From assembly GCF_044324785.1 (NCBI RefSeq), contig NZ_CP172127.1: 64,000 bases of DNA, one strand, 5' to 3'. Of this stretch, positions 2,439 through 46,558 are shown in pieces. Position numbers and translations under genes: made by a program. Source of the stretch: Escherichia coli. GTDB taxonomy: Bacteria > Pseudomonadota > Gammaproteobacteria > Enterobacterales > Enterobacteriaceae. The first letter of the stretch is position 1; every line of letters starts with the position of its first letter. The notes below the pieces were generated by a model that was not told where the DNA came from, ran no database searches, and saw nothing but the letters and a program-made list of their open reading frames with translations.

Positions 2439-3290
2439 TTAAGACTGCTTGGACATCGCAGCAACTTCTGCTGCAAAGTCAGTCTCAACTTTCTCGATGC
2501 CTTCACCCACTTCGAAGCGGATGAAGCCAGTCACTTCAGCGTTATGCTCTTTCAGCAGCTGACCAACAGTTTTGCTTGGTTCCATAACGAACGGCTGACC
2601 GGTCAGAGAAACTTCGCCGGTGAATTTCTTCATGCGGCCTTCAACCATTTTCTCTGCGATTTCTTTCGGCTTACCAGACTGCATCGCGATATCCAGCTGT
2701 ACCTGGTATTCTTTTTCTACCACTTCAGCGGATACGTCTTCCGGTTTGATGAATTCTGGCTTGCTTGCAGCAACGTGCATAGCGATGTGTTTAACCAGCT
2801 CTTCGTCAGCGCCTTTAGCAGCAACCAGAACGCCGATACGCGCACCGTGCTGATAAGAACCCAGAACGTCGCCTTCCAGCGCAGCAACGCGGCGAATGTT
2901 GATGTTTTCACCAATTTTCGCTACCAGCGCAACACGTTCTTCTTCGAACTGTGCTTTCAGAACTTCAACGTCAGTGATTTTGCCAGCAACAGCTGCGTCC
3001 AGAACTTTGTCTGCGAACGCCTGGAAACCAGCGTCTTTTGCAACGAAGTCAGTCTGGCAGTTAACTTCCAGAATGATGCCGTAGTTGCCGTCGATTTTGG
3101 TTTTGATCACGCCGTCAGCAGCAACGTTGCCTGCTTTTTTCGCTGCTTTAATAGCACCGGACTTACGCATGTTTTCGATTGCCAGCTCGATGTCGCCGTT
3201 AGCTTCAGTCAGTGCTTTTTTGCAATCCATCATGCCTGCGCCAGTACGCTCACGCAGCTCTTTTACCAGGGATGCGGTAATTTCAGCCAT
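2439..3290 (-). CDS. tsf: elongation factor Ts
   Basis: 283-aa [48 protein letters not shown]... Confidence 0.97.
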
Positions 3291-3340
3291 TCTAAAATCC
3301 TCGGAGATGTGATCTGCCCGGCATTAAACCGCACAGATAT

Positions 3341-3374
3341 AAAAGTGAAAAAGGGGGCCATATGCAGGCCCCCT
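3341..3374 (-). terminator. Intergenic rpsB-tsf hairpin (attenuator-type partial terminator)
   Basis: gggggcc-atatgca-ggccccc at 3353-3373; on the minus strand it is followed by tttttcactttt; sits about 60 nt upstream of the tsf start. Confidence 0.6.
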
Positions 3375-3547
3375 AACCAAACGTGTACTACCTGGTCTAT
3401 AAGGGCTCTCCCCCTTCATATTTCGCGCCGCAGATGCGTTATCTTCGCTCGCTCATCCCGGTCACTTACTGATGTAAGCTCCCGGGAATTCTCGAGCTTG
3501 CCGCCTTTCTGCAACTCGAACTATTTTGGGGGAGTTATCAAGCCTTA

Positions 3548-4495
<948 letters not shown>

Positions 4496-5478: not shown

Positions 5479-8169
<2,691 letters not shown>

Positions 8170-8199
8170 TGTGTTTACTGATATGAAAAGAGTTTAACA

Positions 8200-9024
8200 A
8201 TGCAGCAGTTACAGAACATTATTGAAACCGCTTTTGAACGCCGTGCCGAGATCACGCCAGCCAATGCAGACACCGTTACCCGCGAAGCGGTAAATCAGGT
8301 GATCGCCCTGCTGGATTCCGGCGCACTGCGTGTGGCGGAAAAAATTGACGGTCAGTGGGTGACGCATCAGTGGTTGAAAAAGGCGGTGCTGCTCTCTTTC
8401 CGTATTAATGATAATCAGGTGATCGAAGGGGCAGAAAGCCGCTACTTCGATAAAGTGCCGATGAAATTCGCCAACTACGATGAAGCGCGTTTCCAGAAAG
8501 AAGGCTTCCGCGTTGTACCACCAGCGGCGGTACGTCAGGGTGCGTTCATTGCCCGTAACACCGTGCTGATGCCGTCTTACGTCAACATCGGCGCATATGT
8601 TGATGAAGGCACCATGGTTGATACCTGGGCGACCGTCGGTTCCTGTGCGCAGATTGGTAAAAACGTCCATCTTTCCGGTGGCGTAGGTATCGGCGGCGTG
8701 CTGGAGCCATTACAGGCGAACCCGACCATTATTGAAGATAACTGCTTCATTGGCGCGCGTTCTGAAGTGGTTGAAGGCGTAATTGTCGAAGAAGGTTCCG
8801 TCATTTCCATGGGCGTATACATCGGTCAGAGCACCCGTATTTACGACCGTGAAACCGGCGAAATCCACTACGGTCGCGTTCCGGCGGGGTCTGTGGTTGT
8901 TTCAGGTAATCTGCCGTCGAAAGATGGCAAATACAGTCTTTACTGTGCGGTTATCGTTAAGAAAGTTGACGCGAAAACTCGCGGCAAAGTCGGCATTAAC
9001 GAACTGCTGCGTACCATCGACTAA
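8200..9024 (+). CDS. dapD: 2,3,4,5-tetrahydropyridine-2,6-dicarboxylate N-succinyltransferase
   Basis: 274-aa [51 protein letters not shown]... Confidence 0.97.
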
Positions 9025-35379: not shown

Positions 35380-36777
35380 ATTTTTACCCGAGTCGCTAAT
35401 TTTTGCCGCAAGGTGCTAAGCCGCGAGGAAAGCGAGGCTGAACAGGCAGTCGCCCGTCCACAGGTGACGGTGATCCCGCGTGAGCAGCATGCTATTTCCC
35501 GCAAAGATATCAGTGAAAATGCCCTGAAGGTAATGTACAGGCTCAATAAAGCGGGATACGAAGCCTGGCTGGTTGGCGGCGGCGTGCGCGACCTGTTACT
35601 TGGCAAAAAGCCAAAAGATTTTGACGTAACCACTAACGCCACGCCTGAGCAGGTACGTAAACTGTTCCGTAACTGCCGCCTGGTGGGTCGCCGTTTCCGT
35701 CTGGCTCATGTGATGTTTGGCCCGGAGATTATCGAAGTTGCGACCTTCCGTGGACACCACGAAGGTAACATCAGCGACCGCACGACCTCCCAACGCGGGC
35801 AAAACGGCATGTTGCTGCGCGACAACATTTTCGGCTCCATCGAAGAAGACGCCCAGCGCCGCGATTTCACTATCAACAGCCTGTATTACAGCGTGGCAGA
35901 TTTTACCGTCCGTGATTACGTTGGCGGCATGAAGGATCTGAAAGACGGCGTTATCCGTCTGATTGGTAACCCGGAAACGCGCTACCGTGAAGATCCGGTA
36001 CGGATGCTGCGCGCGGTACGTTTTGCCGCCAAATTGGGTATGCGTATCAGTCCTGAAACCGCAGAACCGATCCCTCGCCTGGCTACCCTGCTGAACGATA
36101 TCCCACCGGCACGCCTGTTTGAAGAATCTTTGAAACTGCTGCAAGCGGGCTACGGTTACGAAACCTATAAGCTGCTGTGTGAATATCATCTGTTCCAGCC
36201 GCTGTTCCCGACCATTACCCGCTACTTCACGGAAAATGGCGACAGCCCGATGGAGCGGATCATTGAACAGGTGCTGAAGAATACCGATACGCGTATCCAT
36301 AACGATATGCGCGTGAACCCGGCATTCCTGTTTGCCGCCATGTTCTGGTACCCACTGCTGGAGACGGCACAGAAGATCGCCCAGGAAAGCGGCCTGACCT
36401 ATCACGACGCTTTCGCGCTGGCGATGAACGACGTGCTGGACGAAGCCTGCCGTTCACTGGCAATCCCGAAACGTCTGACGACGTTAACCCGCGATATCTG
36501 GCAGTTGCAGTTGCGTATGTCCCGTCGTCAGGGTAAACGCGCATGGAAACTGCTGGAGCATCCTAAGTTCCGTGCGGCTTATGACCTGTTGGCCTTGCGA
36601 GCTGAAGTTGAACGTAACGCTGAATTGCAGCGTCTGGTGAAATGGTGGGGTGAGTTTCAGGTTTCCGCGCCACCAGATCAAAAAGGGATGCTTAACGAGT
36701 TGGATGAAGAGCCGTCACCGCGTCGCCGTACTCGTCGTCCACGCAAACGCGCACCGCGTCGTGAGGGTACCGCATGA
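35380..36777 (+). CDS. pcnB: poly(A) polymerase I, initiating at a non-canonical AUU codon
   Basis: ORF track opens at TTG 35359 ([15 protein letters not shown]...); the K-12 protein (465 aa) begins at the ATT at 35380-35382 ([13 protein letters not shown]...), the known non-canonical pcnB start; this position gives exactly 465 aa. Confidence 0.9.
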
Positions 36778-37253
36778 CAGTGGCGTATATTGCCATAGGC
36801 AGCAATCTGGCCTCTCCGCTGGAGCAGGTCAATGCTGCCCTGAAAGCATTAGGCGATATCCCTGAAAGCCACATTCTTGCCGTTTCTTCGTTTTACCGCA
36901 CTCCACCGCTGGGGCCGCAAGATCAACCTGACTACCTCAACGCCGCCGTGGCGCTTGAAACCTCCCTCGCCCCGGAAGAGTTACTCAACCATACACAGCG
37001 CATAGAGCTGCAACAGGGTCGTGTTCGTAAAGCGGAACGCTGGGGACCGCGTACGCTGGATCTCGACATCATGCTGTTTGGTAATGAAGTGATAAATACC
37101 GAACGTCTGACCGTTCCGCACTACGATATGAAAAATCGTGGCTTTATGTTGTGGCCGCTGTTTGAGATTGCGCCGGGACTGGTGTTTCCTGATGGAACAG
37201 TATTAGGAAATTTATTAAAAATAAATAAATTTCATGAATTAAACAAATGGTGA
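36774..37253 (+). CDS. folK: 2-amino-4-hydroxy-6-hydroxymethyldihydropteridine pyrophosphokinase (HPPK); C-terminus differs from the K-12 sequence as I recall it
   Basis: 159-aa [52 protein letters not shown]...; ATG overlaps the pcnB stop (ATGA); last 20 codons are very AT-rich. Confidence 0.93.
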
Positions 37254-37600
37254 TTTAATGATTTCATGAATATAAATAAATTCCGAAAAATAACCTTACC
37301 CATTGCAATTAATATATTCCCTAAGCTACAACCATAATTAATATTATATACCCCGCTAACACCTTCTACCTCACATACAATATTTCTTCCGCTTTGTACA
37401 TTAAGCTTTACTTAAAGATGAATTAAGTGGATATATAAATTTAAATATGCACAATATCCCACTTGGTGATGAACAGATGTTACATTCAGTAAATCTTCAC
37501 ATTCATCATTAACAAACCAATCTATTTTTCTCTATCGGGGTTCTTTGTCTGAAAGTACCCGATCGTAGTTAAACTCATGGAATATGATTCAAGGATTATT
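37254..37600 (+). promoter_or_regulatory. AT-rich upstream regulatory region of the fimbrial operon
   Basis: About 350 bp of strongly AT-rich sequence with direct repeats (ataaataaat and ttcatgaat each occur twice, 37221-37282), typical of H-NS-silenced chaperone-usher promoters; no specific promoter elements assigned. Confidence 0.4.
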
Positions 37601-38173
37601 ATGTCTAAAAAATTAGGTTTTGCCCTGTCTGGTCTAATGCTGGCAATGGTTGCAGGTACTGCTTCTGCTGATATGGACGGTGGTCAGATTAACATCAGTG
37701 GCTTGGTTAGCGATAACACCTGTGAAACAAAAGTTGATGGCGGCAAGCAAGATGGCCTGGTTCTTCTGCAAACTGCAACGGTTGCTGAAATTACCGCTGG
37801 TGTATCTGAAACTGCTGTCGGCGCCAAAGCGAAACCGTTTAGCATTACTGTAGACTGCAGCAAAGCGACTCCGGGAGGCCAACCGACTCTGACATTCGGT
37901 TCAGTCTTCTTTGGTAACAGTCGTGGCACTTTGAATAACGATATGTCCATCACCACCCCGTCATCTGGTGTGAATATCGCCCTGCACAACATTGACGGCA
38001 CCACGGTTAAACAAGTCAAAATTAATAATGCATCTGATGCTTACACTAAAGCATTAACCAATAATGTTGCAGTCTTTGACTTCAAAGCCTCCTATGTTCG
38101 TGAAGACAACTCAACACCAGCAACGGCTGGTTATGTAAGAACCAACACAGCTTACACCATCACCTACAATTAA
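37601..38173 (+). CDS. yadN: fimbrial major subunit (YadN-type pilin)
   Basis: ORF track 198 aa; start at ATG 37601 ([23 protein letters not shown], signal peptide) preceded by AAGGA; C-terminal beta-strand motif TAYTITYN. Confidence 0.85.
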
Positions 38174-38265
38174 GTTATTCGTTGGTGATTTAAATTACTA
38201 CAAGGGTGCGACACCTATTGTCGCCCCCTTGTCTTGAAAACAATTCATGTCATGGATGGTATATT

Positions 38266-38997
38266 TTGTTAAATAAAAAGAATATTGTCGCATTATGTGT
38301 TGTCAGTAGTATGGCATTTAGTATGCCTGTTATGGCCGATATTGTTATTTCCGGTACACGCGTCATTTATAAAAGTGATCAAAAAAGCGTTAGCGTACGC
38401 CTGGAGAATAAAGGCAATAGCCACCTGTTAGTACAAAGCTGGCTGGATACCGGTGACGATAACGCTGAGCCAGGAAGCATTAATGTACCATTTACGGCAA
38501 CACCTCCCGTTTCACGTATTGATGCTAAACGCGGTCAAACCATCAAATTGATGTATACCGGCAGTACCGTACTCCCCAGCGATAAAGAAAGCGTATTCTG
38601 GTTTAACGTGCTGGAAGTGCCCCCAAAACCAGATGCTACAAAAGTGGAGAATCAGAGCCTGTTACAACTGGCTTTCCGTACCCGTATCAAGCTGTTCTAT
38701 CGTCCGGCAGGATTAAACGGTAACCCGTCTGAAGCACCATTAGCCCTGAAATGGAAATGGGCTGAAGGGAAGTCTGGCCTGAGTGTATATAACCCAACAC
38801 CTTATTACGTCTCTTTCAACAGCGCAGAGTTAATCGCTGGCGGTAAGTCGAACCCGCTCAACGTAAAAATGATTGCACCGAAAAGCGAAGAGATTTTCAC
38901 CATAAGCGGTTCAGGCGGGAAAGCAACGTCAGGAAAGGTACATTTCTCAGCGATCAATGATTTTGGCGGCGCAATTGAAGGCGATGTCAATTTGTAA
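38266..38997 (+). CDS. yadV: periplasmic fimbrial chaperone (PapD-like, EcpD/YadV-type)
   Basis: ORF track starts at GTG 38206; a TTG at 38266 gives LLNKKNIVALCVVSSMAFSMPVMA signal followed by DIVISGTRVIYKSDQKSVSVRLENKG (PapD-like pilus chaperone N-domain); exact start uncertain. Confidence 0.8.
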   Translation: MLNKKNIVALCVVSSMAFSMPVMADIVISGTRVIYKSDQKSVSVRLENKGNSHLLVQSWLDTGDDNAEPGSINVPFTATPPVSRIDAKRGQTIKLMYTGSTVLPSDKESVFWFNVLEVPPKPDATKVENQSLLQLAFRTRIKLFYRPAGLNGNPSEAPLALKWKWAEGKSGLSVYNPTPYYVSFNSAELIAGGKSNPLNVKMIAPKSEEIFTISGSGGKATSGKVHFSAINDFGGAIEGDVNL

Positions 38998-39031
38998 GAC
39001 CAGGGACCTTATGCAGCAGGAAGCCAATGTA

Positions 39032-41632
39032 ATGAAAACAACGACATCGACTAAACGCCATAATCTTACGCGTATCGCAATGTATTGCTCAATTATGTAT
39101 AGCGGCGCTACCATCGGAGCCGAAAGCGTTGAGTATGACCCTACCTTTTTAATGGGTGGCAACGCTTCCAGTATTGATGTTAGCCGCTATAGCGATGGCA
39201 ACCCGACTTTGCCTGGTGTTTACGATGTTAGCATCTATGTTAACGAGCAACCTGTTGCTAACCTGGAGATCCCCTTTATCGCGATCCCCGAAAAAAAGAA
39301 TGCTCAAGCCTGTATTACCCTGAAAAATCTACTACAACTTCATATCAAGCCCCCCCCGGCAGACGAGGAAAATACTATCCTTCTTCCACGGGATGAAACG
39401 CTTGGCAACTGTCTTGACCTGTCGTTAGCCATACCTAAATCCTCAGTGAGCTATGACCCCTCTGAACAACGTCTGGATATCAATGTTCCCCAGGCGTGGG
39501 TGATGAAGAATTATCAAAACTATGTGGACCCATCACTTTGGGAAAATGGCATTAACGCGGCTACGCTGTCTTATAACATCAACGCTTATCGCAGTGAAAA
39601 TTCAAATTATACAAATGATAGCGTTTATACATCGTTCAATGGTGGCGTCAATTTAGGTGCCTGGCGTCTGCGTAGCAGCGGTAACTATAGCTGGAGAAAC
39701 GACGCGGGAAGCAATGTTGAGTTTATGAATCGCTACGTCCAGCGCGACATTACCGCTATTCGCTCGCAGCTCATTATGGGGGAATCCTACACCACAGGTG
39801 AAACGTTCGATTCCGTTAGTATCCGCGGCATTCGCTTATACAGCGATAGCCGAATGCTGCCGCCAGTATTGGCAAACTTCGCCCCAACAATTCGTGGTGT
39901 AGCGAATACCAACGCCAAAGTCAGCATTACCCAGGGTGGATACAAAATTTATGAAACCACTGTTCCACCGGGACCTTTTGTCATTGATGATCTCAGTCCG
40001 TCAGGGTATGGCAGCGATCTTATCGTAACCATTGAAGAAGCTGATGGCAGCAAGCGTACATTTTCTCAGCCATTTTCTTCAGTAATTCAAATGCTGCGCC
40101 CGGGTGTTTCTCGCTGGGATATCAGCGGCGGGCAAATTAATAAAGACGACTTGCATCATGAACCAAACTTACTACAAGCGACCTATTACCGTGGTTTAAG
40201 TAACCTGTTCACTGGCTATACTGGTTTTCAGGTCACAGATAATCATTATGCTGCAGGCTTACTTGGCATTGGGATGAATACTTCTGTCGGCGCAATTTCC
40301 TTCGATGTCACCCACTCCAGTGTCGATATACCGGATGATAAAAGGTACCAGGGGCAAAGCTATCGCATCTCCTGGAACAAATTTTTTGACCTGACAGATA
40401 CATCATTAAACATCGCGGCTTACCGCTACTCCACGCAGGACTATCTGGGCCTGAATGATGCATTAACACTTATTGATGAAGTTGAACATCCCACTCAGGA
40501 TCTTGATCCCAAAACTATGCGCAACTACGGGCGCATGAAAAACCAGTTCACCGTAAGCATTAACCAACCGCTACGCTTTGGGAAGGATGATTATGGCTCG
40601 TTCTATACCTCTGGAAGCTGGTCTGATTACTGGGGGGGCGGTAAGAGCCGTAGCAACTATTCGGTCGGCTACAGTAACAGCGCTTCATGGGGAAGCTACA
40701 GTATCAGCGCTCAACGATCCTGGGATGAGTACAGCCAAACAGAAAACAGTATTTACCTCAGCTTTTCGATACCTATCGAAAAACTGATGGGTACGGAGCA
40801 CCGTGATTCCGGTTTCCAAAGTATTGATACACAACTTAGTACCAATATGGATGGTAATAATCAGTTCAACATGAGCAGTAGCGGTTATAGCAACGATAAT
40901 CGCGTGAGCTATAGCGTGAACGCGGGTTATGGGATGAATAAAACCGGCAAAGATCTCAGCAACATCGGGGGTTATGCCAGCTATGAATCGCCATGGGGAA
41001 CGCTAGCTGGGTCAGTCTCTGCTACCAGCGATAATAACCGCCAGTACTCCGTTAATACAGATGGTGGATTTGTGTTGCACAGCGGAGGACTTACGTTCAG
41101 CAACGACAGTTTCAGTGATAATGACACCATTGCTCTGGTTAAAGCACCGGGTGCAAAAGGGGCGCGTATTAACTACGGCAACAATACCGTTGACCGTTGG
41201 GGATATGGCGTAACCAGTGCTCTTTCACCATACCAGGAAAACAAAATTGCTCTGGACACTGAAAACCTGGAAAACGACATCGAAATGAAGAGCACCAGTA
41301 CAGTTGCCGTACCACGCCAGGGCTCGGTTATCTTTGCTGGTTTTGAAACCAATCAGGGACAATCTGCGATTATGAATATCAAACGCAGTGACGGAAAAGG
41401 TATCCCCTTCGCCGCCGATATTCATGATGAAACAAATGCAATCATTGGCAACGTTGGGCAGGGCGGGCAGGCATTTGTTCGCGGTATTCAGCAGCAGGGC
41501 ACGATAAAAATCACCTGGCTGGAAGCCAGCATGCCCAAAACCTGTATTGCGCAGTACCAGCAACCCAATGTGACATCGGAGAAAATCCAGCAAACGATTA
41601 TTCTCAATAATATTCTTTGCCAGCTCCAATAA
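39032..41632 (+). CDS. htrE: outer-membrane fimbrial usher (HtrE/YadU-type)
   Basis: ORF track 891 aa from 38957; start at ATG 39032 (MKTTTSTKRHNLTRIAMYCSIMYSGATIGAESVEYDPTFLMG) follows the chaperone stop and has AGGAAG upstream; 866 aa. Confidence 0.88.
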   Translation: MKTTTSTKRHNLTRIAMYCSIMYSGATIGAESVEYDPTFLMGGNASSIDVSRYSDGNPTLPGVYDVSIYVNEQPVANLEIPFIAIPEKKNAQACITLKNLLQLHIKPPPADEENTILLPRDETLGNCLDLSLAIPKSSVSYDPSEQRLDINVPQAWVMKNYQNYVDPSLWENGINAATLSYNINAYRSENSNYTNDSVYTSFNGGVNLGAWRLRSSGNYSWRNDAGSNVEFMNRYVQRDITAIRSQLIMGESYTTGETFDSVSIRGIRLYSDSRMLPPVLANFAPTIRGVANTNAKVSITQGGYKIYETTVPPGPFVIDDLSPSGYGSDLIVTIEEADGSKRTFSQPFSSVIQMLRPGVSRWDISGGQINKDDLHHEPNLLQATYYRGLSNLFTGYTGFQVTDNHYAAGLLGIGMNTSVGAISFDVTHSSVDIPDDKRYQGQSYRISWNKFFDLTDTSLNIAAYRYSTQDYLGLNDALTLIDEVEHPTQDLDPKTMRNYGRMKNQFTVSINQPLRFGKDDYGSFYTSGSWSDYWGGGKSRSNYSVGYSNSASWGSYSISAQRSWDEYSQTENSIYLSFSIPIEKLMGTEHRDSGFQSIDTQLSTNMDGNNQFNMSSSGYSNDNRVSYSVNAGYGMNKTGKDLSNIGGYASYESPWGTLAGSVSATSDNNRQYSVNTDGGFVLHSGGLTFSNDSFSDNDTIALVKAPGAKGARINYGNNTVDRWGYGVTSALSPYQENKIALDTENLENDIEMKSTSTVAVPRQGSVIFAGFETNQGQSAIMNIKRSDGKGIPFAADIHDETNAIIGNVGQGGQAFVRGIQQQGTIKITWLEASMPKTCIAQYQQPNVTSEKIQQTIILNNILCQLQ

Positions 41633-41644
41633 TACGAAAGAGAG

Positions 41645-42211
41645 ATGACAATGATAAAAAACTCACGGTATAAAATAGTACTCCTGACAGGCATTTTTTT
41701 ACTGCCCGGCGCACTGGCACAAGATATTAATGTTGATTTTGTTGCCACAATCAAAGGCACGACATGTAATATCACTCTGGAAGGGACACGCGTCACCGCT
41801 GATGGAAATAATCAGTACACGCTACGGATATTAAATGTTGCTCTGGATAAAATCATAAACAAGATGCCAGAAGCACAAGCCGACTTTAAACTGGTCGCTA
41901 ATTGTGATGGTAACATAGGCAAGATTACGACATCGCTGGCAGGGAATCCTTCAGGAGAGTTACCCTATTTAATTTCTCCATTAACTTCAGATAATTCATC
42001 CACCACAGAATATATTGCTATGGGGATTAAACTTCGAAATACCTCTGACACTGAATTTATTCCCCCAGATGGTTCTAAAAAGATTTCCTGGGGAGAGGGA
42101 TTAACAAAACCGGAACTTGAGATGACGGTAGCACTTCGCGAAACCCGACCAGGTTCAGGAAGAGCAGGTAGTTTTAAAGCACTTGCGACATTCAATTTCA
42201 CCTATGAATAA
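41645..42211 (+). CDS. fimbrial minor subunit (YadM-like)
   Basis: 188-aa ORF MTMIKNSRYKIVLLTGIFLLPGALAQD...; signal peptide and pilin C-terminus ATFNFTYE; the start may instead be ATG 41651. Confidence 0.8.
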   Translation: MTMIKNSRYKIVLLTGIFLLPGALAQDINVDFVATIKGTTCNITLEGTRVTADGNNQYTLRILNVALDKIINKMPEAQADFKLVANCDGNIGKITTSLAGNPSGELPYLISPLTSDNSSTTEYIAMGIKLRNTSDTEFIPPDGSKKISWGEGLTKPELEMTVALRETRPGSGRAGSFKALATFNFTYE

Positions 42212-42224
42212 AAGGATAATAATA

Positions 42225-42824
42225 ATGCAGATGAAATCATTACATTATGGGATATTTGCAAGCATTACTCTGAGCTTATTATTATTCAGCACGTTTTCTA
42301 TAGCCATCACTGATAACATTGGCCTAAACGTTATGACCATTGTTGAAAACAGAACTTGTCAAAGCGAAATCAACAACCAGGGGTTGGTTAATCTTGGCAC
42401 TGTTGGAGTGGGATATTTTGCCAGTAATGTTAGTGCGGAAGATAATTATCCAGGCGGAAAAACCTTTACTGTGACAGTAAAAGATTGCCCCTCCGCTGGC
42501 ACAACATCAAGTCAGTTGCATATAGAATTTAAACCTGTCAGTGGTGTAATGGCCACTGGTAGCCAACAGATATTCGCCAATAATCATGTCGGCGGCGCAC
42601 AAAATGTAGGAATCGTTATTTTTAGCCAAAATAATCAGTCATCGGATACAGTGAATGTGCTGTCACCAACAGGGCAGTTTCGCACGGTCTGGCCTGTTGT
42701 CTCTGCGAATATGAATAATTCATCGTGGCAATTTTATACACGAATGCAGAAAATAGATCCGTTACTCCCGGTTGGTGCAGGATTTGTTACCAGTAACGTA
42801 TTAGTTGATATTTATTATCAATAA
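42225..42824 (+). CDS. fimbrial minor subunit (YadL/YadK-like)
   Basis: ORF track from 42183; start at ATG 42225 (MQMKSLHYGIFASITLSLLLFSTFSIA) preceded by AAAGGA; 199 aa. Confidence 0.78.
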   Translation: MQMKSLHYGIFASITLSLLLFSTFSIAITDNIGLNVMTIVENRTCQSEINNQGLVNLGTVGVGYFASNVSAEDNYPGGKTFTVTVKDCPSAGTTSSQLHIEFKPVSGVMATGSQQIFANNHVGGAQNVGIVIFSQNNQSSDTVNVLSPTGQFRTVWPVVSANMNNSSWQFYTRMQKIDPLLPVGAGFVTSNVLVDIYYQ

Positions 42825-42877
42825 TTATGCTAAGCATAATGCTTCTACAAATATTATTTTTTCAAAGGAGTGATAAG

Positions 42878-44128
42878 ATGAAGTCAGCGTTCCGATACTT
42901 TATTTTTTTATGGATTATCACAGCCAGCATTAATAATGTAAATGCTGGAAGTCTTACTTTTATGGTCGGTAACGATGCTGGCATAGGAAACACGCACGGC
43001 CCAACAGGCGATAAACTAATATCATTTGCCTATCCGGTTGGTGGAGTAAACAATATTGTATTTTATGATCCAACATCAGACACACCGACCGATGCAAAAA
43101 TAAAATTATATTGGAGTGAACTGGACACATCAAGTAGCGGTGGGACTGTATATTGTACTTCAAAAGATAATTCCAGCGGTGTGCCAATTACTGTCCGGCA
43201 TCAGATGGTTTACTCAGGAAAAATGGCAGATGGGCACAAATTATATGAAACCAATGTTACCGGTCTATATTATACGTTAATGCTCAATAAATTCTGGTCG
43301 TATGAACTTCTCTCAAGCTCTCCAGATATGTACGTTGGAGACGACGGCTGGCACACTGTACAATTTTATATTACGGGTAATTATATGCGAGGTCAATGTA
43401 ATACTAAAAATATACAAGCCGTCGGGGGCCTTGCTCACGATGCTACAGTGAAATTCTATACCGACAGAACTTTTAACCCTGCTCCAAATACTAACGTGCA
43501 ATTAAAACACACTGGTGATTATTTGTATTCATTCGAAAATGAAGGACCAGGGAATCCAAATGTAAAGTATTCTAAGAAACTATTCGTAGATTTTAAATTA
43601 ACAGACATCAAAATCCAACTGCCAACATGCTTTACGTCTATCCTTTTGGGTGAGAGCGTAACGCGATCAACCGTAAATCTCGGGGAATATACTGTTGGAC
43701 AGATCACCTCAGATTCTGCAACACCTGTTAATTTTCAGATTTCGCTACAAAATTGTGTTCGAATAAGTAGTATTAAAACAAAACTAAAATCTAATGTAGT
43801 AGGAGTGAATAATCCTCTGTTGCTTGGTAATACTTTGACAGGAACCGATGATGCAAAAGGTGCCGGAGTACTTATTGAAGGGTTACCCAATAGCAAAAAT
43901 TCACAAAATTTCACGCTTAAGCCAAATGATGAGACGTCAAGCTATAACGATGCTGAAGATGATCCTGGAGAAAACAATGGAATTTATAACCCAGATTATC
44001 CTAATGCCAACGGTCGTACTACAACCCAGGACCTGAAATTTCAGGCAACATTAAAACGCGATGGTAATGCAACTGTGAAACCCGGCGGATTTAAGGCTAC
44101 CAGTACATTCCAGGTCACCTACGAGTAA
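42878..44128 (+). CDS. yadC: fimbrial tip adhesin-like subunit (YadC-like)
   Basis: ORF track 433 aa from 42827; start at ATG 42878 (MKSAFRYFIFLWIITASINNVNA) preceded by AAGGAG; 416 aa with pilin-like C-terminus STFQVTYE. Confidence 0.8.
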   Translation: MKSAFRYFIFLWIITASINNVNAGSLTFMVGNDAGIGNTHGPTGDKLISFAYPVGGVNNIVFYDPTSDTPTDAKIKLYWSELDTSSSGGTVYCTSKDNSSGVPITVRHQMVYSGKMADGHKLYETNVTGLYYTLMLNKFWSYELLSSSPDMYVGDDGWHTVQFYITGNYMRGQCNTKNIQAVGGLAHDATVKFYTDRTFNPAPNTNVQLKHTGDYLYSFENEGPGNPNVKYSKKLFVDFKLTDIKIQLPTCFTSILLGESVTRSTVNLGEYTVGQITSDSATPVNFQISLQNCVRISSIKTKLKSNVVGVNNPLLLGNTLTGTDDAKGAGVLIEGLPNSKNSQNFTLKPNDETSSYNDAEDDPGENNGIYNPDYPNANGRTTTQDLKFQATLKRDGNATVKPGGFKATSTFQVTYE

Positions 44129-44140
44129 CAGGTTTAACCG

Positions 44141-44170
44141 CACCGCCATCATCTGGCGGTGCTGTAATTG
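44141..44170 (+). terminator. Hairpin terminator after the fimbrial operon
   Basis: caccgcc (44141-44147) / ggcggtg (44155-44161), then ctgtaattgat. Confidence 0.4.
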
Positions 44171-44241: not shown

Positions 44242-45036
44242 ATGAAACCAACCACTATTGCTTCATTGCAGAAATGCAAGCAGGACAAAAAACGTTTCGC
44301 GACAATAACCGCTTACGACTATAGCTTCGCAAAACTGTTTGCCGATGAAGGGCTTAACGTGATGCTGGTCGGCGATTCACTGGGCATGACGGTTCAGGGG
44401 CATGACTCCACGCTACCGGTTACCGTTGCTGATATCGCCTACCACACTGCCGCCGTACGTCGCGGTGCGCCAAACTGCCTGCTGCTGGCTGACCTGCCGT
44501 TTATGGCGTATGCCACACCAGAACAAGCCTTTGAAAACGCCGCAACGGTTATGCGTGCCGGGGCCAACATGGTCAAAATTGAAGGCGGTGAGTGGCTGGT
44601 AGAAACCGTACAAATGCTGACCGAACGTGCCGTTCCTGTTTGTGGTCACTTAGGTTTAACCCCACAGTCAGTGAATATTTTCGGCGGCTACAAAGTCCAG
44701 GGGCGCGGCGATGAAGCGGGCGATCAACTGCTCAGCGATGCATTAGCATTAGAAGCGGCAGGCGCACAACTTCTGGTGCTGGAATGCGTACCGGTTGAAC
44801 TGGCAAAACGTATTACCGAAGCGCTGGCGATCCCGGTTATCGGTATTGGCGCAGGCAACGTTACCGATGGACAGATCCTCGTGATGCACGATGCGTTCGG
44901 CATTACTGGCGGTCATATCCCTAAATTTGCCAAAAATTTCCTCGCTGAAACGGGCGACATCCGCGCGGCTGTGCGGCAGTATATGGCTGAAGTGGAGTCC
45001 GGCGTTTATCCGGGCGAAGAACACAGTTTCCATTAA
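44242..45036 (+). CDS. panB: 3-methyl-2-oxobutanoate hydroxymethyltransferase
   Basis: 264-aa [63 protein letters not shown]... Confidence 0.97.
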
Positions 45037-45980: not shown

Positions 45981-46250
45981 TTAGTTAGAGTTAATTAGCT
46001 TATCAATCTCTGCAAGAGATAAAGCTGTCACCTCTGCAACGTCTTCCCGAGACATCCCTTTATTCAGAAAACGTTGGGCGAATTCCTGTCTTACTTCCTG
46101 TCTTACTTCCTGTCTTACTTCCTGTCTTACTTCCTGTCTTACTTCCTGTCTTACTTCTTGATACGCTTCTTGATACGCCTTCTGAAATCCCTTCTCTTCA
46201 AACCACTGCGCTAACGTCTGCCTGGTTTCTCTCCGTGTCTTTATTTCCAT
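45981..46250 (-). CDS. standalone small protein homologous to the C-terminal tail of RpnC (RpnS / YpaA-like), with an (EVRQ)6 repeat
   Basis: 89-aa ORF MEIKTRRETRQTLAQWFEEKGFQKAYQEAYQEVRQEVRQEVRQEVRQEVRQEVRQEFAQRFLNKGMSREDVAEVTALSLAEIDKLINSN; AAGGGA 4 nt upstream of the ATG; nucleotide segment about 85% identical to the rpnC 3' end. Confidence 0.7.
   Translation of the reverse strand: MEIKTRRETRQTLAQWFEEKGFQKAYQEAYQEVRQEVRQEVRQEVRQEVRQEVRQEFAQRFLNKGMSREDVAEVTALSLAEIDKLINSN
46085..46180 (-). repeat. In-frame 12-bp tandem repeat array inside the small Rpn-tail gene
   Basis: 6 perfect copies of cctgtcttactt (46085-46156) plus 2 copies of cttgatacgcyt (46157-46180); encodes (EVRQ)6 and (EAYQ)2 on the minus strand. 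Confidence 0.95.
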
Positions 46251-46318
46251 ATGTTCCCTTAATTATCTGGTCAGTTAACAATAACAATTATCTGGCTATA
46301 ACTGATAATACAGACAAC

Positions 46319-46558
46319 TTAGTTAATCAGTTTATCAATCTCAGCAAGAGGTAAATTTGCCATCTCTGCAACGTCTTCCCGAGACATTCCTTTACTCAGA
46401 AGACGCTGGGCGAATTCCTGACTTACTTCCTGTGTTACTTCCTGTATTACCTCTTGTCTTACCTCTTGTCTTACCTCCTGTCTTCCTTCCTGTCTTCCTT
46501 CCTGTCTTCCTTCCTGTCTTCCCCTCTCTTCAAACCACTGCGCCAGCGTCATCATAGA
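46319..46558 (-). CDS. putative intragenic small ORF in frame with the rpnC C-terminus (RpnS-type candidate antitoxin)
   Basis: In-frame ATG-ATG at 46553-46558 (MMTLAQWFEERGRQEG...KLIN, 79 aa) preceded on the minus strand by acGGGAGGGGAGtct, a strong Shine-Dalgarno 3 nt upstream, inside the rpnC coding sequence. Confidence 0.45.
   Translation of the reverse strand, partial: SMMTLAQWFEERGRQEGRQEGRQEGRQEVRQEVRQEVIQEVTQEVSQEFAQRLLSKGMSREDVAEMANLPLAEIDKLIN

Follow-up and report, generated by a model that had tools for sequence, protein, structure and literature searches.

Introduction

The Yad fimbria of Escherichia coli is encoded by a chaperone-usher operon at the folK-panB site, which in strains K-12, CFT073 and EC958 has seven genes in the order N-V-E-M-L-K-C. 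Orthologous loci, with ushers of the same clade, are those for Sta of Salmonella (staABCDEFG; PMC3559732) and for an operon of Citrobacter sp. FP75, and Yad and Sta are regarded as one ancestral locus (PMC3559732). By usher phylogeny, enteroaggregative E. coli (EAEC) 042, a strain of phylogroup D, has an intact Yad operon of the gamma-4 clade with usher EC042_0139 (Wurpel et al. 2013). Here we describe the yad-type operon in a stretch of E. coli DNA of 64,000 nucleotides (nt) from contig NZ_CP172127.1 (assembly GCF_044324785.1), called the window below, which has six genes, one of them a pilin gene of 199 amino acids (aa) that appears to join the start of yadL to the body of yadK.

The window operon resembles Yad of K-12, CFT073 and EC958 in its site, in gene order and orientation, in its protein families and in an AT-rich upstream region, and a YadC-type two-domain adhesin with a variable lectin domain is common to all of them. 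However, it has six genes instead of seven, with a single L'-'K hybrid in place of yadL and yadK, and its proteins are strongly diverged from those of the three strains (identities of 78% for N, 76% for V, 75% for E, 56% for M and 47-50% for C). The operon of EAEC 042 (EC042_RS00735-00760), by contrast, is of the same class, with the same layout and the same hybrid, and its nucleotide identity to the window is 98-100% outside the lectin domain; the two adhesins differ at 41 residues, all of them in the lectin domain, and the flanks are more diverged than the operon itself. Salmonella Sta and Citrobacter sp. FP75 differ from the window in that StaE/YadL and StaF/YadK are kept separate. YadK homologues are named StaF by NCBI, and its StaA, StaD and StaE models match the window proteins weakly. 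At the same site, O157:H7 Sakai (ECs_0139-0145) carries another deeply diverged class, which is missed by identity thresholds based on K-12 or EC958 and which, unlike the window, has seven genes with separate L and K, its usher being 58% and its adhesin 25% identical to those of the window.

A six-gene operon at the folK-panB site

A listing of open reading frames (ORFs) together with Pfam and NCBIfam matches places folK (36774-37253) directly before six plus-strand ORFs, which are followed by panB (44242-45036) and panC; ahead of folK, the ORF listing gives dksA, gluQ and pcnB. This gene neighbourhood is that of K-12 yad in reversed orientation. The six genes are as follows.

37601-38173, plus strand: major pilin of the YadN/StaA type, 190 aa (PF00419; ratio of non-synonymous to synonymous substitution rates, dN/dS, 0.08 against 042)
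38266-38997, plus strand: PapD-like periplasmic chaperone of the YadV/EcpD type, 243 aa (PF00345 and PF02753; the ORF opens at 38206)
39032-41632, plus strand: outer-membrane usher of the HtrE type, 866 aa (PapC_N, Usher and PapC_C)
41651-42211, plus strand: minor pilin of the YadM/StaD type, 186 aa (PF00419; 51-57% identical to YadM alleles)
42225-42824, plus strand: pilin of 199 aa, read as a yadL'-'yadK hybrid (PF00419)
42878-44128, plus strand: two-domain YadC-like adhesin, 416 aa (PF00419 on the C-terminal part)

The initial annotation had recognized a six-gene yad-type chaperone-usher operon between folK and panB, and the ORFs, the Pfam and NCBIfam matches and the gene-by-gene orthology with K-12 all bear this out. 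Its gene sizes of 190, 243, 866, 199 and 416 aa also stand, but the pilin that it gave as 188 aa, from ATG 41645, is better read as 186 aa from an ATG with better Shine-Dalgarno spacing. The non-ATG start that it proposed for a chaperone of about 243 aa is found at TTG 38266, which sits 7 nt after GGATGG and gives 243 aa; the sole in-frame ATG (38311) would leave a signal peptide of just 9 residues, and public gene calls are 243 or 244 aa.

All expected domains are in place. The chaperone has both Ig-like domains (PF00345, E 5e-43; PF02753, E 4e-19), the usher carries all three of its domains (PF13954, PF00577 with 526 bits, and PF13953), and PF00419 is found in four window proteins; the pilins and the two-domain tip adhesin of classical (gamma-clade) chaperone-usher fimbriae are thus represented. 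The curated cut-offs of Yad-type NCBIfam models are passed by the usher (equivalog NF007337, 1587 bits against a cut-off of 830), the chaperone (NF007398, 417 against 285), the 199-aa protein and the adhesin (NF007268, a dedicated sub-model, 691 against 382 over the whole protein). BLASTP identity to the K-12 proteins is 78% for YadN, 76% for YadV, about 75-76% for HtrE, 56% for YadM, 54% for YadK (over the body of the 199-aa protein) and 47% for YadC; flanking PcnB, PanB and PanC are 98.5-99.8% identical to their K-12 counterparts.

From the stop of folK to the start of panB, the window measures 6,988 nt and K-12 measures 7,651 nt, a difference of 663 nt. Because the locus is shorter by this amount and because the two distal spacers are only 13 and 53 nt long, each carrying a Shine-Dalgarno site, there is no room for a seventh ORF or a frameshifted remnant; this excludes the possibility, raised by the initial annotation against its own reading, that seven ORFs would emerge once a frameshift is corrected. 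Shine-Dalgarno sites precede all genes of the operon, and complete genomes as well as other public assemblies carry independent annotations of the six-gene layout.

Judged by its sequence, the window thus has, at the conserved folK-panB site, a chaperone-usher fimbrial operon that is complete and of the Yad/Sta type (gamma-4 clade). Of the features that define Yad/Sta, it has the site and an HtrE-orthologous usher, and it lacks the seven-gene N-V-E-M-L-K-C organization. Because the literature assigns the family by locus and usher, the six-gene state is a variant of the Yad family and not a reason for exclusion from it.

The 199-aa hybrid subunit

The initial annotation had suggested that one minor subunit was missing or fused, and fusion is what the alignments point to, since the 199-aa gene combines a YadL-type N-terminus with a YadK-type body. 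Its parts are placed as follows.

42225-42347, plus strand: 5' part, codons 1-41, signal peptide and N-terminal donor strand, apparently derived from yadL
42345-42359, plus strand: putative fusion junction, codons 41-45 (E-N-R-T-C)
42360-42824, plus strand: 3' part, codons 46-199, pilin body with acceptor groove, apparently derived from yadK (StaF type)

Global alignment gives about the first 45 residues as YadL-like and the remainder as YadK-like. Six seven-gene alleles served for comparison: identity over residues 1-45 is 40-51% to YadL (scores of 77-111) versus 21-30% to YadK (scores of 20-39), whereas over residues 46-199 it is 55-60% to YadK (scores of 420-478) versus 21-26% to YadL. When the N-terminus was compared with composition-preserving shuffles, z-scores were 12.6-18.6 against class-1 YadL and 2.0-5.5 against YadK, and for the mature donor strand alone they were 8.3-9.2 and 2.0-3.1, respectively. 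A profile hidden Markov model (HMM) of YadL covers the hybrid from its first residue; the YadK HMM begins to align only at residue 15 and does so with low confidence up to about residue 35. When 1.84 billion representative proteins were searched exhaustively with HMMER, all examined matches starting at residue 1 were YadL proteins or truncated copies of the hybrid.

The curated families divide the protein in the same way. With 253 bits, the protein exceeds the cut-off of the YadK/StaF model NF011794 (132), although the first 45 residues resemble no YadK/StaF N-terminus; the YadL/StaE models stay below their cut-offs (NF011795, 47 bits versus 392; NF011797, 46 versus 206) and match in the N-terminal region alone. 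From the predicted signal-peptide cleavage site to the first cysteine there are 18 residues in the hybrid, as in YadL, compared with about 15 in YadK/StaF proteins of many genera, which have the pattern D-x-D-L-x-A-x-V. The spacers tell the same on both sides of the gene: that before the hybrid is 13 nt (compare 11 nt for yadM-yadL of K-12), and that between hybrid and adhesin is 53 nt (compare 49 nt for yadK-yadC of K-12).

At the junction itself, Thr-Cys is the sole motif common to the N-terminal regions of YadL and YadK. Upstream of it the hybrid reads '..T-I-V-E', as in YadL ('T-T-V-E'), and downstream it reads 'T-C-Q-S-E-I-N-N-Q-G', as in YadK ('T-C-K/Q-S-G-I-S-N-Q-G'). On these alignments, the 199-aa gene is a yadL'-'yadK chimera, with a YadL-type N-terminus on a YadK-type body.

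Four short proteins (P0050, P0076, P0086 and P0092) match residues 1 to about 43 of the hybrid at 90-97%. They were considered as fragments of a parental YadL and rejected, being frameshifted or truncated copies of the hybrid.

Origin of the six-gene state

The best overall explanation, and one that we regard as very probable, is that the window holds a complete Yad/Sta operon in an allele of the 042 class, with six genes as the result of an in-frame yadL-yadK deletion. Loss of about 630 nt would have made the start of yadL continuous with the 3' part of yadK; the retained 5' piece would comprise the yadL signal peptide and donor-strand N-terminal extension up to the conserved Thr-Cys, and the outcome would be one adaptor subunit with a YadL donor strand on a YadK pilin body. 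Taken together, the remainder of yadL, the head of yadK and the 26-nt spacer come close to the 663 nt that the locus lacks. The simplest route appears to be one in-frame deletion, or one unequal crossover, between these two adjacent paralogues. The initial annotation had proposed an alignment check for yadL/yadK recombination between paralogous pilin genes, and the chimera does match the deletion product of adjacent paralogues.

The direction of change is suggested by the other alleles. The genes yadL and yadK are separate in K-12, N3, ATCC 8739, XJ34, STLEFF_47, STEC367 and EC958, and also in the far more distant allele of O157 Sakai (usher about 58-60% identical to that of the window); L and K genes are separate at the folK-panB site of Citrobacter sp. 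FP75 (usher about 57% identical), and Salmonella StaE and StaF are separate NCBIfam families. The six-gene state is thus most probably derived, because every other inspected allele and the outgroups keep L and K separate.

Several points weigh against this explanation. No seven-gene parent of the window allele class was found in sequence searches, including that of the 1.84 billion representatives, and each half of the hybrid is some 50% away in sequence from all known YadL and YadK proteins, which together would make the deletion old and beyond mapping at the nucleotide level. The alignments locate the junction to within about 5 codons at best, with no breakpoint demonstrable at the nucleotide level. 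The N-terminus of the hybrid is only weakly similar to YadL of O157 Sakai and Citrobacter (z of 0.9-3.4), and the signal peptide of Citrobacter YadK likewise has a K-L-YG-like motif. An AlphaFold2 (AF2) model of the hybrid, from an alignment of 11 sequences, was unusable, with a predicted local distance difference test (pLDDT) score of 34. Furthermore, a single deletion is indistinguishable from loss of yadL combined with a separate conversion of the 5' end of yadK. A contig scan with a YadK alignment returned 6 loci only, among them one informative outgroup (Citrobacter), and did not recover Salmonella Sta loci.

One alternative is a clean deletion of yadL, after which the 5' end of yadK diverged or was gene-converted, so that its likeness to YadL would be convergent or due to a second event. 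The short length and biased composition of signal peptides and donor strands, together with the motif just mentioned in Citrobacter YadK, would lend this some plausibility. However, up to 23 of 45 residues are identical to YadL with z reaching 18.6, the similarity includes the mature donor strand (11/18, z of 9.2), whose length is YadL-like, and the upstream spacer is like that of yadM-yadL; one deletion accounts for all of this in a single event, and we consider the clean loss of yadL very unlikely.

Slightly less probable still is that the six-gene layout is ancestral and that a hybrid-like gene was duplicated, one copy keeping the N-terminus (yadL) and the other the body (yadK). The window usher is 74-75% identical to K-12-like alleles, which are 84-98% identical among themselves, so that it forms the deepest branch, and the lack of a seven-gene relative among the sequences searched also fits an ancestral layout. 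But L and K are separate at the more distant loci of O157 Sakai and Citrobacter, as are StaE and StaF in Salmonella, and a complementary mosaic, in which the N-terminus is only L-like and the body only K-like, would be unexpected under symmetric divergence after duplication.

Least probable of all is a decaying remnant, or a seventh gene hidden by a sequencing or assembly artefact such as a frameshift: Yad is cryptic in K-12 under laboratory conditions (cited in PMC3559732 and PMC13245861) and IS1 stands in place of the hybrid gene in some carriers, but an artefact is refuted by the absence of unassigned DNA in the shortened locus and by the same layout in complete genomes and other public assemblies, and decay is opposed by strong purifying selection on hybrid, usher and chaperone (dN/dS of 0.04-0.08) and by the Shine-Dalgarno sites at all genes.

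Distribution and cassette exchange

The allele with the hybrid gene is fairly common in E. coli. Of 5,426 complete genomes, 458 carry the six-gene allele in full at 97.5-97.8% identity, and it is the allele of EAEC 042, the reference strain of phylogroup D, in which four of the six operon proteins share RefSeq accessions with other carriers. The exact proteins of the window are already public, and over 17 kb the window differs from one draft genome by only one mismatch. The window allele is common, has already been sequenced and classed as Yad, and is no peculiarity of the source strain.

With a query of the distal genes, approximately 14 complete carriers match the YadM-type gene alone; in the one inspected, strain MSB1_3B, IS1 has replaced the hybrid gene together with the start of the adhesin gene (locus positions 7630-8327). 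A break in similarity after the YadM-type gene (99% identity) was considered as a sign of a seven-gene parent; this was rejected, as the break marks IS1 in place of the hybrid in a six-gene allele.

Comparison with strain N3 suggests how the operon spreads. The upstream flank of the window is 99.5% identical to N3 and at most 98.5% identical to other complete genomes among the matches listed. On the left, identity of the two is 100% as far as about 37640, where the pilin gene encodes its conserved signal peptide; on the right, they are 100% identical for about 120 nt from about 44180, 95-98% over 44300-44800 and 100% thereafter. Between about 37640 and about 44180, N3 carries a seven-gene allele, despite having a folK tail and upstream region of the six-gene type. 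Identical flanks thus surround a six-gene body in the window and a seven-gene body in N3, a clear case of cassette exchange in which the operon moves between lineages by homologous recombination. Crossovers lie on the left in folK or the conserved start of the pilin gene, and on the right shortly before panB.

Against 042, the synonymous substitution rate (dS) in the flanks is 0.33 for folK, 0.27 for panB and 0.13 for panC, compared with 0.03-0.06 for pilin, chaperone and usher; old polymorphism linked to the yad alleles seems to persist in the flanks. On the comparisons made, the folK-panB site is home to at least three deeply diverged allele classes, that of the window and 042 being one.

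The operon of Citrobacter sp. FP75 contains tandem major-pilin genes (locus positions 2721-4358; 195 and 194 aa), which bring its total to eight genes. Subunit number at folK-panB thus changes in both directions.

Adhesin

The adhesin falls into two parts, which differ sharply in their variation.

42878-43612, plus strand: signal peptide and N-terminal lectin (receptor-binding) domain, residues 1 to about 245, hypervariable
43613-44128, plus strand: C-terminal pilin domain, residues about 246-416 (PF00419), predicted to anchor the adhesin to the next subunit

The adhesins of the window and 042 differ at 41 amino acids, every one of them at residues 9-245, and the pilin domain has no non-synonymous differences; dN/dS is 0.96 in the lectin domain versus 0 in the pilin domain (Fisher p = 3e-4). 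We propose, from these substitutions, that the lectin domain evolves under relaxed or diversifying selection. The expectation of the initial annotation that allelic changes in the adhesin are functionally meaningful fits this restriction of all differences to the lectin domain. Over 42600-43700, identity is at most 91.8% in every complete RefSeq E. coli genome, and the exact adhesin protein is public on many contigs.

An AlphaFold2 model of the adhesin, with a pLDDT of only 73, matches the two-domain tip adhesins LpfD, CupB6, FocH, FimH and PapG, and its C-terminal half matches pilins of the FimA/FimF/FimG type. A sequence search against PDB chains gave no match at E up to 1.

Selection and proposed assembly

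Between the window and strain 042, dN/dS by the method of Nei and Gojobori is 0.08 for the chaperone as for the pilin, 0.07 for the usher and 0.04 for the hybrid. The hybrid has a dS of 0.15, and the ratio in its 3' part (codons 46-199) is 0.03 with a dS of 0.18. Because its 18 synonymous changes stand against only 3 non-synonymous ones, the hybrid gene would seem to be maintained by selection. ORFs are intact in most of the 458 complete carrier genomes, and the operon looks functional.

By the established chaperone-usher pathway, subunits would be exported via Sec, capped by the YadV-like chaperone through donor-strand complementation and polymerized by the HtrE-like usher through donor-strand exchange, with the two-domain adhesin first, then the hybrid and the YadM-like adaptor, and then the YadN-like rod. 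The tip adaptors FimF/FimG and PapK/PapE/PapF serve as a working analogy, in which donor strand and groove set the order between adhesin and rod. The pilin domain of the window adhesin is structurally like FimF and FimG in its AF2 model, but the window adaptors do not belong with these Fim and Pap proteins at the sequence level.

If the order at the tip is C-K-L-M-N, as in Fim and Pap, the YadL donor strand would partner the YadK groove, and the hybrid would consequently be complementary to itself. It is therefore conceivable, although we think it rather doubtful, that the hybrid is a rewired, self-complementary adaptor that homopolymerizes into a tip fibrillum of variable length, or else that its persistence under strong purifying selection is a sign of loose specificity between donor strand and groove among Yad adaptors. 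A homopolymerizing hybrid would change the reach and mechanics of the adhesin; with loose specificity, one unequal crossover would be enough to remove a Yad adaptor. To our knowledge, no natural fusion of one adaptor's donor strand to its neighbour's body has been described for Fim or Pap. In either case, the allele is a natural experiment on the determinants of subunit order in chaperone-usher pili.

Upstream region, hairpin and folK tail

Three further features lie at the left edge of the operon and within it.

37197-37253, plus strand: last 18 codons and stop of folK, left edge of the polymorphic block, where GC falls to 0.36
37254-37600, plus strand: AT-rich non-coding region (about 35% GC), presumed promoter and H-NS-silenced control region
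38200-38230, plus strand: stem-loop CAAGGGUGCGACA...UGUCGCCCCCUUG between the pilin and chaperone genes, with a 13-bp stem

The upstream region is 100% identical to N3 and 96-98% identical to 042, but only 56-60% identical to K-12. Repression of yad by H-NS has been reported in K-12 and in extraintestinal pathogenic E. coli (PMC13245861), and given this repression of other yad alleles and the 35% GC of the region, the window operon is probably also silenced by H-NS. Consensus scans did not rise above shuffled expectation for promoters (23 versus 18.2 +/- 3.9) or for terminators (11 versus 6.7 +/- 2.9).

For the hairpin region 38170-38270, the minimum free energy is -28.9 kcal/mol, with z = -3.56. 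The hairpin is no classical terminator because it has no U tract; by analogy with other fimbrial operons, it is possibly an mRNA-stabilizing, processing or attenuating element that sets the ratio of pilin to assembly machinery.

FolK ends in 18 residues that depend on the class of the yad allele: the window is identical to N3, 042 differs at 1 of the 18, and the tail reads EMLRQILHTRAFDKLNKW in the K-12/ATCC 8739 class (K-12 sequence) and ETLREILTSLAVLQPAIWY in O157 Sakai. Because the FolK tail tracks the yad allele class, the polymorphic block reaches into folK, which encodes an essential enzyme.

Neighbouring rpnC/yadD region

Beyond panB and on the minus strand (45981-47275), the rpnC/yadD region is split into ORFs of 89 and 318 aa. 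Both hold perfect or near-perfect 12-nt tandem repeats encoding QEVR/QEGR (46083-46157, 6.2 copies; 46415-46520, 8.8 copies), whose copy number depends on the strain, related loci having ORFs of 71-89 and 310-318 aa. There is a strong local GC skew in this region.

Implications

A 2026 survey called strains Yad-positive at an identity cut-off of 80%, found Yad in 5% of phylogroup D and 0% of phylogroup E, and concluded that Yad is largely absent from both (PMC13245861). Identity to HtrE of EC958 is 75% for the window usher and 60% for the O157 Sakai usher, both below this cut-off, yet the yad-type operons at folK-panB are complete in 042 (phylogroup D) as well as in Sakai. The reported absence is probably an artefact of allele class. 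Screens based on K-12 or EC958 would score the diverged folK-panB classes as absent, and the presence or absence of yadL in genome-wide association and adhesiome studies may partly mirror allele class and not gene loss.

No published description of the six-gene layout or of the fusion was found in the literature. The chaperone-usher operon is otherwise ordinary, and the origin of the 199-aa gene by fusion is a modest detail, apparently undescribed, whose main value lies in annotation and in offering a natural test of donor-strand specificity. A hybrid adaptor kept by selection would provide testable predictions on subunit order in an understudied fimbria. Overall, the locus illustrates cassette-type allelic replacement between near-identical backgrounds, together with domain-restricted diversification of a receptor-binding domain.

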